From a virus (Duplodnaviria; Caudoviricetes), in the IMG/VR virus record IMGVR_UViG_3300026085_000003, positions 1 through 43,831 of that record: a DNA stretch of 43,831 bases; one strand, given 5' to 3'. The notes under the pieces are model-generated. The model was not told where the DNA came from. It did no database searches and saw only the letters and a program-made list of their open reading frames with translations. Positions 9,279-37,664 of the stretch are shown here, piece after piece. The first letter of the stretch is position 1, and each line of letters opens with the position of its first letter. Both the position numbers and the translations under genes were made by a program.

Positions 9279-11096
9279 CTATTTAGCGTTTGGTACTTTA
9301 ATTAGTTTTCCGTATTCCGGCAAATATAAGTATTCAATTTCGCTATTTTTCAACGTATGTAGTGCGTCATCTAGAGATTCTACCAATGGCTCACCACCTA
9401 GATTAAAACTAGTATTAAAGATAATTGGACATTCTGTCTTTTCCTTAAACTTTTTAATCAAATTATAGTAATGTGGATTCTGTTCTTCAGTAACTGTTTG
9501 AATTCTGCAAGTACCATCTACGTGAATAATTGAAGGAATTTTTTCTTTAATTCCTGGTTGACAATTTACAGCGTACATCATACTTGGCGATGATTTCATA
9601 CCTCTTAAATCAAACCATTCGTGTACATCTTCTTCAAGAATTGTACCAGCAAATGGACGGAAGTATTCTCTATGCTTTACAGTATTAACAAAATCTTTAC
9701 CGTCTTTTTCTCTTGGATCAAACAAAATGCTTCTGTTACCCAATGCTCTTGGGCCGTTTTCACTTTGTCCTTGGAATAGTGTTACAATGTTTCTAGATGT
9801 TAATAACTCAACTACCATTTCGTTTGAACCTTCTAGAACATCACCACCAATTGCTTCTACTTTTTCTTTAATTTCATCTTCAGTATATGAATGTTTAGGA
9901 CCTAAGTACAAGTTGTCTTTCCAAGTTGTAATAGTTTCGTCTTGTGTAATGCTTCTATGAATGAACATAGCCGCACCCATTGCCGTACCTGCATCGTTTG
10001 AAATAGGTTCAACATATAGATTGATTCCTAAATCTTTTAATCTTTCTAAGTAAAAATAGTTTGCAACACAGTTAAGAGCATAGCCGCCTGATAAAACAAC
10101 ATTCTTTTCGCCTGTCATTTCAACTGCTTTTTCAATTAAACGTGCTACTTGTTCTTGCGTTTCAATTTGCGTAGCGTATGCTAAATCTCTACGATTTTTT
10201 AATACGGTATAGTCACGCTTTTGATCACTACCTGTTGCACCTTGTTCGTTTTCTGTTTCTGAAAATAGTAATGCATTAATTTGTGCACCGTTAGGATAGT
10301 TAGGGCAAATAAAATTTCTATTTGTTAAAGGAATCTTACTTGATTCATCAAACAAAGGTGGAATGTTTTCATTAGGTTCACCATAAGGAAATAGTCCCAT
10401 AGTTTTGCCTGCTTCAATTGAACTAAATCCACAATATTCTGTTGTGGCTTCATATAATTTTGTAATACCTGCTCTGTCACTAATTATGCATTCGTGTTTG
10501 CCATCTTCATTGTACATTGAACTATCAAATGCAGTATTAATTGCTCCTGGACTTGGTCCACGTAATCCAATGTGTTTATATAATGTCTTAAAGTTGCTTG
10601 GATATTCACAACTAAAAATAGTTTCAGTTTCCCAACCAACAACTTGTTCTCCACCAAAGTTAAGTGGAATAAATGTGCCGGCACCATCCACAACAACACC
10701 AACTGCTTTATCAAATCCTGATCTATAAAATGACATAGCGGCGTGTAATTTGTGATGCACAAAACTTAAATCAATTACTTGACTGTGTTGATAAGGATTG
10801 TCTTTTCTATTAATTAATCCTAGTTTACGTGCTAACCCTGTATAAACATTGTCTCCGGTATAATCAATTCTACCTGCTGTTTCTTCAAGACTTTGTGTAT
10901 GTGCTACTACCAAATAATCTAATTTGTCTGTGTAGTCTAAAATTTTAACCATAGAGGCAAAAGGACCTCCATCATATTTTTGTCTTGATAATCTTTCTTC
11001 TTCTACAGAAAAAACAATTTCTCCGTCCTTTAGTAGACACACTCCTGCATTATGACCTCTGGCAATGCCGGCAATCCAGACTGGTTTCTTACTCAT
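9279..11096 (-). CDS. Carbamoyltransferase, NodU/CmcH/TobZ family
   Basis: N-terminal Kae1-like domain (GHNAG..EEERLSRQK, HHKLHAA, VVDGAG, EAGKTMGL.PYG, SGG.ALNCVAN, NDAGTAMGAA). C-terminal YrdC-like domain (GPRALGNRSIL, VKHREYFRPFA, HVDGTCRIQTV, NTSFNLGGEPLVE). Confidence 0.95.
   Translation of the reverse strand: MSKKPVWIAGIARGHNAGVCLLKDGEIVFSVEEERLSRQKYDGGPFASMVKILDYTDKLDYLVVAHTQSLEETAGRIDYTGDNVYTGLARKLGLINRKDNPYQHSQVIDLSFVHHKLHAAMSFYRSGFDKAVGVVVDGAGTFIPLNFGGEQVVGWETETIFSCEYPSNFKTLYKHIGLRGPSPGAINTAFDSSMYNEDGKHECIISDRAGITKLYEATTEYCGFSSIEAGKTMGLFPYGEPNENIPPLFDESSKIPLTNRNFICPNYPNGAQINALLFSETENEQGATGSDQKRDYTVLKNRRDLAYATQIETQEQVARLIEKAVEMTGEKNVVLSGGYALNCVANYFYLERLKDLGINLYVEPISNDAGTAMGAAMFIHRSITQDETITTWKDNLYLGPKHSYTEDEIKEKVEAIGGDVLEGSNEMVVELLTSRNIVTLFQGQSENGPRALGNRSILFDPREKDGKDFVNTVKHREYFRPFAGTILEEDVHEWFDLRGMKSSPSMMYAVNCQPGIKEKIPSIIHVDGTCRIQTVTEEQNPHYYNLIKKFKEKTECPIIFNTSFNLGGEPLVESLDDALHTLKNSEIEYLYLPEYGKLIKVPNAK
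9280..9285 (-). promoter_or_regulatory. Late promoter box TAAATA (5 nt before ATG; leaderless configuration)
   Basis: TAAATA-gtagt-ATG; overlaps the carbamoyltransferase stop codon. Confidence 0.7.
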
Positions 11097-13248: not shown

Positions 13249-14097
13249 TTACGTTTGATACCAAGTAATTCTAATCATTCCTGGAGCACCATAAGATCCA
13301 CAATGGCAGTGTCCTGACCAAGTGTAGAATGTTACGCCGCCAAATCCTGGAACGTACTGTGGTGAAAGTCTTGACCAACCAATATTGTTAGCCGCTGAAC
13401 AGTTAACATAAGTGTCAAAGTGTCTACCACCTACACCTACTCCAACTGTACCACCACATTTGTTAACTAATCCGCCTGGATATGGTAAGAAGTGTTTGTA
13501 ACAACAATGGTCACCACAACTTCTATGTTGCCACCAACCACGCACACCGCCCATACATAGGTCACCACCAAATGCACACGCAACGCCATCGTTTTCTTGA
13601 CATCCACAGCACCAAGAACGACAGTTACAGTAACCTGTTACATAACAACCGTAACCTGGGAAACAATATGAACAACCTGGCTTACCGCCTTCTGCACAGA
13701 AGTTTGATAAACTAGGTCCTTTAATTGAGGATTCACATCCTCTAAATCCGTTTCTACCGTTGTGACAACAAGCACCTTCACCTAAACATAGATCATAACA
13801 GCAACCTGATGTAACACCAATAGTTTTTCTAACGTATGCACCTGAACCACCCGGTGAACCACCCATACAACAGCAGTTTACACCACCGCCGCCACCTGAG
13901 CCCCACGCTTCGAATGTAGCACGAACGGCGTCAACTGGTACAATAAATGCAAAACAGCAGTATTGTTGATAGTTACCAAATGATGGACAACTCCAACAAG
14001 ATGATCTATACATTAATGTACAACCGCCTGGTAAATCTGTTGTAGATTCTCCTTGTGGTAGTACTAAATCTGATACGTAGGATGATAACTGTGCCAT
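13249..14097 (-). CDS. Gly/Cys-rich adhesin-like protein, paralog 3
   Basis: FEAWGSGGGGG..CCC..G.PGGSGAY, NFCAEGG and G.PG.IRITW: a glycine-rich tail-tip (gp38-like) scaffold. About 32 Cys in 282 aa by hand count. Confidence 0.65.
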   Translation of the reverse strand: MAQLSSYVSDLVLPQGESTTDLPGGCTLMYRSSCWSCPSFGNYQQYCCFAFIVPVDAVRATFEAWGSGGGGGVNCCCMGGSPGGSGAYVRKTIGVTSGCCYDLCLGEGACCHNGRNGFRGCESSIKGPSLSNFCAEGGKPGCSYCFPGYGCYVTGYCNCRSWCCGCQENDGVACAFGGDLCMGGVRGWWQHRSCGDHCCYKHFLPYPGGLVNKCGGTVGVGVGGRHFDTYVNCSAANNIGWSRLSPQYVPGFGGVTFYTWSGHCHCGSYGAPGMIRITWYQT

Positions 14098-14102
14098 ACT
14101 AA

Positions 14103-14108
14103 TATTTA
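14103..14108 (-). promoter_or_regulatory. Late promoter box TAAATA (5 nt before ATG)
   Basis: TAAATA-ttagt-ATG. Confidence 0.7.
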
Positions 14109-14117
14109 CCTTCTATT

Positions 14118-14975
14118 TTAACTTTCCTCGTTCCAAGTTACTCTTACAAAACCTGCGTTTCCTGGATAACCGTAACAACAACCGCCACCGCAAGATGTTG
14201 CAGATTGTCCACCAACAGCAGGTGTTAAGCCTGATTCACCAGTCGCCCAACCAATATCAAATACGCATCGTGCCCAGTGTGAGTAACAAGCGTTACCCAT
14301 ATTTTGTGTAGTTGAGTGACCACCATTTTTATTAACTAATCCTCCCGGATAAGCATAACCTAATTTCCAATAACAAGGACCACAGTTACATTGTGCCCAC
14401 ATAAACGATGGTCTACCATAAGTACCACCATCTGCACCGTAGTATAATTGACAACATAAACAACAGTATTGTTCTGTGTAGTAGTAACCACAGTTGTTAC
14501 CTTGACACTGTGAGTAACCCCACATAATCCAACAACAAGTTTTTCCTGGCACACCACCTTCAACACATAAGTTTGTTAATCCTGGTCCTTCAATATAACC
14601 TTTACATCCAATAATACCGCAACAACATCTTGAACAACAAGTAGGTGGTCCTGGATAAAACGCATAACAATCACCTGAATTGAATGCTCCACCATTTGCT
14701 ACGGATTTAATACATTTATAAGCATACGCACCTGAACCGCCTGGTACACCTTGTTGACAACAACAAGCGCCACCGCCTGATCCACCACCTGCCCATACTT
14801 CCATTTTCGCACAGTTGGCTCCGTTTGGCATACACCAATATAGATAACAGTTACCAGCATAATCTGAGTTACAGTAACACTGACAGTGAGGGAAGAAGAC
14901 TACCTGACAACCTGGTTCTAAAGGTCTGATATCATTTGGACTAACTGCGCCTATAAGTGATTTTAAATTTGCCAT
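14118..14975 (-). CDS. Gly/Cys-rich adhesin-like protein, paralog 2
   Basis: MANLKSL start, EVWAGGGSGGGACCC, PGGSGAY, NLCVEGG, YPGGLVNK and G.AGFVRVTW. About 35 Cys in 285 aa. Confidence 0.65.
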   Translation of the reverse strand: MANLKSLIGAVSPNDIRPLEPGCQVVFFPHCQCYCNSDYAGNCYLYWCMPNGANCAKMEVWAGGGSGGGACCCQQGVPGGSGAYAYKCIKSVANGGAFNSGDCYAFYPGPPTCCSRCCCGIIGCKGYIEGPGLTNLCVEGGVPGKTCCWIMWGYSQCQGNNCGYYYTEQYCCLCCQLYYGADGGTYGRPSFMWAQCNCGPCYWKLGYAYPGGLVNKNGGHSTTQNMGNACYSHWARCVFDIGWATGESGLTPAVGGQSATSCGGGCCYGYPGNAGFVRVTWNEES

Positions 14976-14993
14976 ATTATATCATTTCCTCTC

Positions 14994-15845
14994 TTACGGA
15001 TCCAATGTTATTCTTACAAGACCCGGACCGCCTGGGCCTCCACAGTAACAGTTGCCGCCTAGTGCCGAACCTGTGATACCACCTTGTCCTGGTGCTCTCT
15101 GGTGAGAACCACCACCACCGATCATACCTTGTCCTGCTCTACAACCATCAAAGCCACCTGGCATATTATAAGCACAGAATCTGTACATATCCCATCTGTA
15201 ACCTTGCATAGTTAAGTGTCCTGGCATTGGTACGTAGTGTTTGTACCAACAAGAGTTGTTGTTTTGACAGTGTGTTGCAATACCACCAAGTCTACCTGGT
15301 AATCCTGAATCTCCACCAAACCAACAAGCACAACAGTTATCGTATCTTGGGTCTAAACATACACCACAACCGATACAGTTAAACATAAAACATAAAGAAC
15401 AGCCACTAGCGCCGCCTTCTGCACAGAAATTACTGTGCCAATAATTATTACAAATCCAAGTTTTACAACCTCTATAACCACAAGAGAAAACCGGTGAACA
15501 ACAAGCCGGTGGTGCAATACAAATTTGAAATTCTTGTTTACAGTTGTTGTAATTTTGCACACACTTTCTTGTGTATGCACCTGCTCCAGCAGTGAAACCC
15601 CATTGACAACAGCACACACCTGCGCCGCCGCCTCCGCCGCCCCACATTTCTATGAGCATATTGTTTACTGAAGGGTCAGGGTAAAAGCAGTGTTCGTGAC
15701 GACATTGGTCTCTGTTATGCGAAATACCACAGTGTTGTGTAAATGTTACCTGACAGGTATAATATTTCCTGCAGGGACTATTTGGTGAGTTCGCATCGAA
15801 ATCGTTCTTACTCGCTTTGTCTAGTAAACTTTTTAAATTTGCCAT
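14994..15845 (-). CDS. Gly/Cys-rich adhesin-like protein, paralog 1
   Basis: MANLKSL start, EMWGGGGGGAGVCCC, GAGAY, NFCAEGG and GGPGLVRITL. About 31 Cys in 283 aa. Confidence 0.65.
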   Translation of the reverse strand: MANLKSLLDKASKNDFDANSPNSPCRKYYTCQVTFTQHCGISHNRDQCRHEHCFYPDPSVNNMLIEMWGGGGGGAGVCCCQWGFTAGAGAYTRKCVQNYNNCKQEFQICIAPPACCSPVFSCGYRGCKTWICNNYWHSNFCAEGGASGCSLCFMFNCIGCGVCLDPRYDNCCACWFGGDSGLPGRLGGIATHCQNNNSCWYKHYVPMPGHLTMQGYRWDMYRFCAYNMPGGFDGCRAGQGMIGGGGSHQRAPGQGGITGSALGGNCYCGGPGGPGLVRITLDP

Positions 15846-35537: not shown

Positions 35538-35566
35538 AAGAGAAAAGGGCAAAGCGAATTTGCCCT
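35538..35566 (-). terminator. Rho-independent terminator after the 148-aa gene
   Basis: AGGGCAAA-UUCGC-UUUGCCCU stem-loop followed by UUUCUCUU. Confidence 0.8.
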
Positions 35567-35592
35567 CTTCCCGAGTTTTGATAAAACTACGA

Positions 35593-36039
35593 TTATGCGT
35601 TAGCGAAATCGTCGTCATCAACTCCAGCCAAGTCGTCGTCACCAGCCTCTTCAACTTGTGCCGCGCCATCGCTCAAGTTAGCAGTAAAGTTCCAAGCAAC
35701 TGACTTACCGTCATATGCGTTAGATCCTGTGCCATCTGGAGCCTCTAGAGTTGCTTTACGTCCTGAAATTTTAGAAACTTGATAAGTTTCTGAATCGTCC
35801 ATTAACATAGTGATACCCATTTCACCAGCCACTAGTGCTGACATTAGTTTACCAGTTGTTAATGTGCAAGTGTATTCAGTGTCTGAAGCACCAATTTCTG
35901 CTACTACAAACTTCTTGCTACCTTTTTGCTTTACGATGTGACCTTCAACAACTGCTGTGCCGTTGTGGAAATCAACTTTAATTTCATTTCCGCCCGCAGT
36001 CGGTTCGCCGAAGTATCTTTTATTAAGTGGTCTACCCAT
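35593..36039 (-). CDS. Probable abundant virion (head-associated) protein, 148 aa
   Basis: Monocistronic unit (own promoter, strong AAGGAG SD, own terminator) just downstream of the capsid gene; acidic C-terminus. Function not recognised. Confidence 0.55.
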   Translation of the reverse strand: MGRPLNKRYFGEPTAGGNEIKVDFHNGTAVVEGHIVKQKGSKKFVVAEIGASDTEYTCTLTTGKLMSALVAGEMGITMLMDDSETYQVSKISGRKATLEAPDGTGSNAYDGKSVAWNFTANLSDGAAQVEEAGDDDLAGVDDDDFANA

Positions 36040-36060
36040 TTGTTTTCTCCTTTATAAGAA

Positions 36061-36138
36061 GTCCGATCCGGGTTCTATCCGGTACGCAGTGGGTTAATAC
36101 TGCATAAGTCCATCACTTATTGATGGAACATATCTGAC
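36061..36138 (-). ncRNA. Candidate structured cis-regulatory RNA (cloverleaf, 78 nt) in the 5' UTR of the 148-aa gene
   Basis: Closing stem GUCAGAU/AUCGGAC with three internal hairpins: UCCAUCA/UGAUGGA, UAUGCAGU/ACUGCGUA (the G-U pair works only on this strand) and CCGG/CCGG. Confidence 0.55.
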
Positions 36139-36142
36139 AACG

Positions 36143-36148
36143 TATTTA
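36143..36148 (-). promoter_or_regulatory. Late promoter box TAAATA overlapping the upstream stop codon
   Basis: gacTAAATAcgtt. Confidence 0.7.
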
Positions 36149-36421
36149 GTCTACTCTTGTGAATAAGTGTAATAAGTGTGTTTGCGAGAACAATTTTATT
36201 GCTTCGTTTATTTTGTTGGCTTGATCTTGATGCTTTATTGCTAAATGATCGCTAGGACGTCTTCTAATATCTATTTCAATGTCTGAAAGTTTTCTTACTT
36301 CGCTTTGTATTGATGAACAAAATTTTATAATATTAAATTTAAACTCAGGAGCGGTCTTACCTAATTCTCTAAGTTCCTGTTCAATGCCTTGCCAATCCAG
36401 TGATGTCACTAGTTGTTTCAT
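36146..36421 (-). CDS. Hypothetical helical protein, 91 aa
   Basis: Fills the gap after the gp23 terminator; TAAATA box 5 nt before the ATG. Confidence 0.65.
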   Translation of the reverse strand: MKQLVTSLDWQGIEQELRELGKTAPEFKFNIIKFCSSIQSEVRKLSDIEIDIRRRPSDHLAIKHQDQANKINEAIKLFSQTHLLHLFTRVD

Positions 36422-36436: not shown

Positions 36437-36467
36437 AAAAAAATAGGGCGACCTAAGCCGCCCTATT
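36437..36467 (-). terminator. Rho-independent terminator after the major capsid gene
   Basis: AAUAGGGCG-(8 nt)-CGCCCUAUU followed by a U-tract. Confidence 0.9.
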
Positions 36468-36491
36468 CTAATTACGTTATCTTCGTATGGA

Positions 36492-37664
36492 TTACGAGAA
36501 AGATACGTTAGCAGAAGTGATTGACACTTTGCCTAAGTAATCTGCCGCGTTACCTAATGAAGAAGCAGTATTTGAAAGTTCAATGTAACCGTAACGTGTC
36601 ATAAAGCCAACAACTGGTTCAAAAGTTGCTGGATCTAATACAACGCCTGAAGACATTAGAGGAATGTATGGGCAATAGAACGCCGCCGCATCAGCCTCTG
36701 ATGAACCTTTGTAACCAACTAATACTTGGTTGTCGTCTTGACCTGAATCAGCCAAGTAAGCGTCAACGAATACTTTCATTGCGCCGTTTAACGTACCAAC
36801 CATTTTAGTGTTAGTAGGTGCTTCGAACGTACCTTCAGTTGTTCTTGCAAACGCTGAAGTAGTCGCAGATTGTAGGATAGTTAATGCTTGGTTTGAAACC
36901 ACTGCAAAATTACCTGCACCACGTCTTGTTCTAGCCGCGATCTTGTTAGCAACTCTGTTAATTTGAATTGCCAATGCCGCGTGTTCATCACCAACGAAAG
37001 TTGCAGTACCAGATACTGCCGCTTGGTTGTATGTTTCTTCTACAGAAGCAAGTGATCTCAATGAAGCAAGGATCTCTTGGTCGATCTCAGTAGTAATTTC
37101 CTGAGCAAGAGCGGCCATAATTTCCGCTTCAACATCGATACCTTGTTGTGCTTGAGCATCTTGTGCCGCTTCAAAAGTCCAACGAGCAGATAGTTTACGA
37201 GTTTTCGCCTCTACTGCTTGTTTTAAGATTTGAATCGACATTTTCTTACCAGGTGTACCTTCTAACGCCGCAGTGTTATCTGCTTTGTTTGAAGTTTCGT
37301 TACCTGAGTAACCTTCTGCGATTTTGAATGGTGAAAGTGCTTCTTCACCTGCTACCGCTGTGTCATATGACTCAGCATAGCGTACTCTTAGTGTGTGGAT
37401 TTGACCCACAGGGCCTGTCATAGGTTGTACACCAACGATTTCGTTGGCGATAACTGTAGGCATAACCCTTCTGATTACTGGTAGAATGACTCTGTTTAGA
37501 GTTGCTACATTGCCAGCCGAAGTTGCGCCGCTTGAAGCCGCCTCAGCGAGATACTTGCGAGTGTTCTCGAGAGTGACATCCATTACGCTCTTCTTGTGAC
37601 CATTTAGACCTTCTAATAGAGCAGTTTTCGTTTCTGACCAGTTGTTATTGATAACATCTGACAT
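36492..37664 (-). CDS. gp23: Major capsid protein (T4 gp23-like)
   Basis: RRVMP..IA.EIVGVQPMTGP.GQI, AKTRKL.ARWT.EAAQD..AQ.GID.EAE, EITTEID.EI, RTRRGAGNF, FYCPYIPL and P.TFEPV.GF.TRYG. Confidence 0.97.
   Translation of the reverse strand: MSDVINNNWSETKTALLEGLNGHKKSVMDVTLENTRKYLAEAASSGATSAGNVATLNRVILPVIRRVMPTVIANEIVGVQPMTGPVGQIHTLRVRYAESYDTAVAGEEALSPFKIAEGYSGNETSNKADNTAALEGTPGKKMSIQILKQAVEAKTRKLSARWTFEAAQDAQAQQGIDVEAEIMAALAQEITTEIDQEILASLRSLASVEETYNQAAVSGTATFVGDEHAALAIQINRVANKIAARTRRGAGNFAVVSNQALTILQSATTSAFARTTEGTFEAPTNTKMVGTLNGAMKVFVDAYLADSGQDDNQVLVGYKGSSEADAAAFYCPYIPLMSSGVVLDPATFEPVVGFMTRYGYIELSNTASSLGNAADYLGKVSITSANVSFS

Follow-up and report, generated by a model that had tools for sequence, protein, structure and literature searches.

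Why does a gene in the head and tail region of a giant phage begin with a folded, tRNA-sized leader, and what might that leader do? The window (the whole 43,831-nt stretch of DNA that was analysed, a record of 15% completeness according to CheckV) spans head and tail genes of a T4-like jumbo phage, among them those for the portal, prohead protease, major capsid protein, baseplate and fibres. The source is an uncultured giant marine phage with a T4-like gene set, and its major capsid protein shares 66-68% identity with its counterparts in Sinorhizobium phage Phosso, Vibrio phage 2.275.O and PA5oct. The capsid gene is followed, in this order, by a hairpin, a 91-aa ORF, the sequence TAAATA, the RNA element, a Shine-Dalgarno (SD) sequence and a 148-aa gene (Table 1). 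The preliminary description of this DNA had assigned the element to the gene downstream of the capsid; that gene does lie beyond the capsid gene, but not directly, as the hairpin and the 91-aa ORF stand between them. The TAA of TAAATA doubles as the stop codon of the 91-aa ORF, for whose product there is no PHROG match and no Pfam match above the cut-off. Farther along, the tail region of the window holds three tandem phrog_4205 paralogs and a Nol-like carbamoyltransferase gene (13249-15845 and 9279-11096, minus strand).

Table 1. Features of the RNA element and its surroundings (window coordinates)
Feature	Position	Strand	Basis or remark
T4-like major capsid protein	36492..37664	minus	phrog_138, E 4.6e-98
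Terminator-like hairpin closing the head operon	36440..36469	minus	terminator scan; RNA contig end at 36458
91-aa ORF between capsid gene and RNA element	36146..36421	minus	ORF list
TAAATA, putative T4-type late promoter core	36143..36148	minus	sequence; overlaps stop of the 91-aa ORF
P0 5' strand, optional closing stem, at the putative transcript start	36132..36138	minus	pair probability about 0.75
Rfam RF02980 freshwater-2 match, model positions 1-84 of 84	36037..36127	minus	77.3 bits, E 8.6e-12
P1 hairpin, sequence-variable, missing in some homologs	36109..36127	minus	fold; homolog comparison
P2, sequence-conserved stem with conserved U-G pair; loop L2 = 36090-36099	36083..36106	minus	homolog comparison
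L2 3' end (ACCCA), predicted pseudoknot partner of the start region	36090..36094	minus	duplex -7.1 kcal/mol, pseudoknot loop penalty excluded
P3, covarying stem, 7-nt loop N-UAGAAC	36068..36082	minus	homolog covariation
P0 3' strand, optional closing stem	36061..36067	minus	present in 123/366 homologs
Anti-SD stretch able to pair with the SD	36056..36061	minus	prediction
Shine-Dalgarno AAGGAG	36047..36052	minus	sequence
UGGGU (start codon bases 2-3 and codon 2), predicted L2 partner	36034..36038	minus	homolog comparison
148-aa MGRP-family gene	35593..36039	minus	ORF; family profile

The sequence and position first given for the element (36061-36138, minus strand) are exact, and the four-way junction drawn for it is both the minimum free energy (MFE) and the centroid structure in ViennaRNA. 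The MFE is -25.2 kcal/mol (z -3.84; 1/200 shuffles as good), with a closing stem of 6 pairs and one A-G and with arms of 7, 8 and 4 bp. The folded stretch is a real copy of freshwater-2, a motif of the Rfam type Cis-reg, and this is the sole match in the 43.8-kb record. It covers the whole model with a score above the gathering score of the family (49.9 bits) and has its three hairpins, the UUAUGC/GCGUA stem and the UAGAAC loop. The element also lies directly 5' of the SD and of the AUG at 36039, i.e. in a cis-regulatory position. The suggestion that this might be a new motif is thus superseded by the Rfam entry; a conserved, covarying cis-acting leader is supported.

Homologs were collected in two ways. 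A strict core pattern supplied 120 IMG/VR loci, taken from an estimated 890, and among the loci listed nearly all sit behind TAAATA and before an MGRP-type start. The second collection, designed against circularity, relied on promoter, SD and MGRP start only, with no RNA letters in the pattern. The RNA layout was present there in 200 of 221 distinct leaders with 32-92 nt between TAAATA and SD (115/116 and 85/105 for the two longer spacings); leaders with a short spacing were mostly without the RNA, 83 of 89 having neither core pattern. Among these 200 homologs, which had passed no pairing filter, all seven pairs of P2 form in 185, and the inner three pairs of P3 are formed in 592 of 600 cells, where permutation gives a mean of 336 and a maximum of 367. 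All four pairs of P3 show changes on both sides in 20 hand-picked long-form leaders. Compensatory changes at pairs 5 and 6 of P2 were seen in a pooled set of 366 distinct leaders, which was filtered for P2 and P3 pairing and deliberately enriched for AUGGC starts. Covariation among MGRP-type leaders had been proposed as a check on the fold, and it bears out P2 and P3, which hold with compensatory changes, and not the closing stem. In the pooled set the loop of P3 reads N-UAGAAC, and P1 folds with at least 4 bp in 284 leaders; in the other 82 it is weak or missing while the letters of P2 and L3 persist. Pairing of the P1 loop (AUAAG) with a CUUAU, seen in the window only, was discarded, as by inspection P1 loops vary freely in homologs.

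Three of four large virus records have one strong match each, and the fourth has none and keeps only P3. One locus (L109) carries two tandem copies of the RNA; there are also reduced forms, in that L257 (G003) retains P3 with its loop but has no normal P2, and L463 retains a P2-like hairpin but has no P3. Blastn found no cultured carriers of the leader in the phage collection, and a loose RNA pattern run over five cultured jumbo phages gave 5 matches, against 16 in the reversed control. Two matches in metagenome-assembled genomes that might point to a host (Haliscomenobacter and Rickettsiales) may be binned phage contigs and were excluded from use.

With its size, its multi-arm fold and a 7-nt loop on a short stem, the window copy resembles tRNAs and tRNA-like elements, and mimicry of a tRNA, leading to cleavage by RNase P or Z or to recognition as a tRNA, was among the functions suggested for it. 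Such a reading can draw on the 78-nt four-way junction, which is the MFE structure of the window copy, and on the 7-nt loop, which in 279 of the 366 leaders agrees with a loose anticodon-loop pattern (YUNNNRM). However, U occupies the T54 position in only 31/366 leaders and C the C56 position in 0/366 (T-loop positions 2 and 5 are largely fixed by the search patterns), CCA follows the closing strand in 0/123, and RNA contigs continue from the leader into coding sequence. The closing pair of the 7-nt loop is C-G in 228 leaders versus G-C in 93. ARAGORN finds no tRNA in the window, in agreement with the original statement that this is not a tRNA gene and with the negative result expected there, and it was negative at 10/10 loci tested.

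The closing stem P0 has little of the constancy of an acceptor stem. Its 3' strand is missing in 243 of the 366 leaders, even in one (L288) whose protein is 70% identical, and it shows no covariation. In 78 long-lead copies its variable pairs are formed in 196/312 cells, no better than under permutation (194 +/- 2.7); pairing of P0 reaches 81.5% across 20 long copies picked by hand, and its one doubly changed pair is unpaired in 14/20. A 5' GUY is found in 110/123 copies that have the 3' strand of P0 versus 145/243 that lack it. P0 may form in the long-form subfamily as an optional stem, and the cloverleaf is a property of the window variant, not of the freshwater-2 family. As the family has neither the T-loop letters nor a CCA nor a conserved acceptor-like stem, we regard a tRNA mimic as very improbable.

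The position of the element relative to TAAATA is as first described, the first G of the folded stretch being the fifth base after it, and of the 255 leaders starting with GTY, 189 have a G at the fifth or sixth base. Two marine metatranscriptomes from different studies contain the head operon on one contig (36458-40370 and 36547-40431) and the leader together with the coding region on a separate one (35723-36096 and 35816-36125). These are assembled contigs, by which RNA ends are not shown, and they hint weakly at transcription from TAAATA and at retention of the leader on the message. One head-operon RNA contig ends 16 nt below another TAAATA. Four ORFs of the window (36421, 41305, 14097 and 9274, all on the minus strand) start exactly 6 nt after a TAAATA, with five bases between. 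They are likely to be read from leaderless late mRNAs, because a transcript from that TAAATA would have no room for an SD, and as such they would also pin the transcription start site. A 12-bp hairpin (35542-35570, minus strand) immediately follows the 148-aa gene and precedes the next TAAATA; it looks terminator-like by eye and was unflagged by the scan.

The final bases of L2 are complementary to reading-frame bases 2-5, and the window copy has a perfect 5-bp pairing of ACCCA with UGGGU. Over the 366 leaders, 1099 of 1464 cells are Watson-Crick at shift 0 and at most 728 at other shifts, a sharp register that owes much to plain conservation of both sides. More informative is the contrast at codon 2. 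GC[CA] occurs in L2 of 41/89 AUGGC leaders versus 3/276 AUGGG leaders, and with the register fixed a G at L2[-4] is found in 31/89 versus 1/276. On a tree of the downstream proteins (FastTree; 347 sequences trimmed of their first 4 residues, with 19 short or other rows omitted) the GC[CA] trait, which was chosen post hoc after viewing the data, gave 11 independent pairs with 6.9 same and 0.0 opposite (median p 0.016). For four control traits p was 0.6-1, and for the fixed-register trait the median p was 0.06, the p value also obtained from the first, smaller set. GC[CA] is lacking in 48 of the 89 AUGGC leaders, and L2[-5] does not track base +6 (188 A-A). The helix between L2 and the start is mostly of 3-4 bp. 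Pairing of L2 with the SD was rejected, since the best such helix has at most 2 bp in 275/366 leaders, as compared to 40/366 for the start region. A local UGG/CCA hairpin in the coding start (p 0.87) would compete with the pairing between L2 and the start. The predicted pairing of L2 with the start codon region, which goes beyond the structure displayed by Rfam, is supported statistically by these comparisons.

A stretch able to pair with the SD is found in 115 of 123 tail-bearing homologs (CUUCU in 74, CUACU in 32 and CUCCU in 9); the SD itself is invariant. In the window the pairing is predicted in two registers, with p about 0.65 and 0.19. Both the anti-SD hairpin and the closing stem of the long variant are predictions of folding. 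As would be expected of a translational operator, the predicted structure overlaps or hides the initiation region, with comparative support from the association between L2 and the start; the anti-SD stretch would add to the same effect.

Judging from its relatives, the 148-aa gene product is likely a virion protein. It has 1421 database relatives, but no PHROGs match, no Pfam match above the cut-off, none in PDB by sequence or by Foldseek, and no ESM Atlas match above 0.9; nine BFVD matches at E up to 0.001 are all uncharacterised or unnamed. The MGRP profile finds EST35_0383 of phage PA5oct, annotated as 'structural protein, ESI-MS/MS' (E 7e-17), and also finds genes in Phosso and Atu_ph07. 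PMC7318152 gives 93 virion-linked proteins for PA5oct, and in its main text gp383 goes unnamed. The AlphaFold2 model of the 148-aa protein is confident and mostly beta (pLDDT 87.4, pTM 0.83), and in a fold comparison residues 2-78 matched Tudor/SH3-like structures only weakly (best Z 5.1, rmsd 4.0, 56 aligned).

Among the RNA-headed ORFs of at least 80 aa, 297/345 match the MGRP profile and 32 more, many of them cut by the locus end, share the N-terminal peptide. The RNA heads a different gene type, missing the MGRP profile, in the remaining 16, where L2 pairs with the start by at most 3 bp. Genes of this second type (L488, L489, L504, L513, L605 and others) have MATRK or MAHTRK starts and a GDxFxD motif, which we take to resemble fibre-anchoring domains; two proteins tested gave no Pfam match. 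In PA5oct, Phosso and Atu_ph07, the cultured phages with MGRP homologs, TAAATA is followed by a short leader that lacks the RNA, so the MGRP gene does not need it. The notion that the MGRP start is kept by the RNA was ruled out, given that MGRP genes with short RNA-less leaders exist. Four loci (L391, L393, L402 and L434) encode tandem MGRP paralogs, the first with the RNA and the second with a short RNA-less leader, which makes them a natural control pair for expression tests. By count, K and R are enriched at several columns of the RNA-headed MGRP proteins; co-evolution of basic residues with the RNA gave a null result on the tree (6 independent pairs; 9/291 rows dropped).

The reading that we tentatively favour, giving it somewhat less than an even chance, is that the freshwater-2 leader, located at the likely start of a late transcript, acts as a protein-bound translational operator whose ligand is most likely the surplus virion product of the gene itself. 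Late transcription would start with the G of the leader. Stacking of P2 and P3 would expose their fixed letters for recognition by a protein; L2 would base-pair around the start codon, and in the window variant the anti-SD would mask the SD. The bound protein, most likely surplus own product, would lock this fold and reduce translation. The near-invariant letters in stem and loop suggest a binding surface, formed by the invariant face of P2 and the N-UAGAAC loop. The gene's own product is ranked first among the candidate ligands because most copies head one gene family and because leader-based autogenous control is known in T4.

A switch at the start codon might instead respond to another ligand, be it a different phage or host protein or, in the manner of a riboswitch, a small molecule. 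The near-invariant core letters and the pairing over the start site would suit such a switch, as would the second gene type behind the same RNA and the lack of co-evolution with basic residues of the MGRP protein. However, the genes downstream mostly belong to one virion-type family and have no metabolic theme, and no riboswitch family of Rfam was matched above chance; on balance we consider another ligand unlikely. The leader could also be a ligand-free 5' structure that protects the transcript end and sets the translation rate of an abundant protein, as the element starts at the putative +1 and the leader region is present in RNA contigs of two studies. Plain stabilisers need shape and not fixed letters, whereas here the letters of P2 and L3 outlast a weak or missing P1, and we hold this explanation to be quite unlikely. 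A small self-cleaving ribozyme trimming the 5' end would have in its favour a small conserved core with a pseudoknot; no Rfam ribozyme family was matched, though, and the predicted pseudoknot uses the start codon, which would fit translation control better, so that a ribozyme appears extremely improbable. The operator reading can be extended to a wider and rather doubtful proposal. Freshwater-2 would then be an assembly sensor of aquatic jumbo phages, in which an unassembled virion protein of no known family clamps the three-hairpin leader over the start codon and so matches output to free particle sites, and the fold would represent a new RNA-protein recognition module.

The freshwater-2 motif reportedly originates from the 224-motif screen of Weinberg et al. 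2017. Literature searches for freshwater-2 or RF02980 by name found no relevant paper, and searches by mechanism showed nothing on the motif among the papers listed. In the main text of PMC5737381, whose supplement may describe a phage link or a pseudoknot, the term 'freshwater' has no match, and the motif is absent from passages of PMC10690425. As the motif is catalogued already, the observation itself is not new. The added value lies in a mechanism, open to testing, for an orphan Rfam family that is common among aquatic jumbo phages (one strict pattern puts it at about 890 IMG/VR stretches). The elements of this mechanism are the pairing of a loop with the start codon, the late-promoter context and the link to a virion protein family.

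The window copy resembles the Rfam family in its full-length match, three hairpins, UUAUGC/GCGUA and UAGAAC sequences and an SD and AUG at the 3' end. It differs in a 5' extension and a closing stem that lie outside the model, and the displayed Rfam consensus has neither the pseudoknot between L2 and the start nor the anti-SD hairpin. In addition, the RNA runs that contain the window copy are marine. According to passages of PMC3014915, T4 gp32 and gp43 and E. coli rpsO are subject to autogenous repression through leader structures. In those operators a leader structure, in gp32 and rpsO a pseudoknot, controls the translation initiation of its own gene, as we infer for the element described here. 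In gp32 the pseudoknot is found 67 nt upstream of the start (PMC3014915), whereas the loop of the window element would pair with the start itself. No likeness of sequence or fold to the gp32, gp43 or rpsO operators is apparent, and the product in this case resembles a virion protein and not a known nucleic-acid-binding protein. If it is true that a virion protein uses this fold to repress its own message, autogenous control in phages would extend from replication proteins such as T4 gp32 and gp43 to particle assembly.
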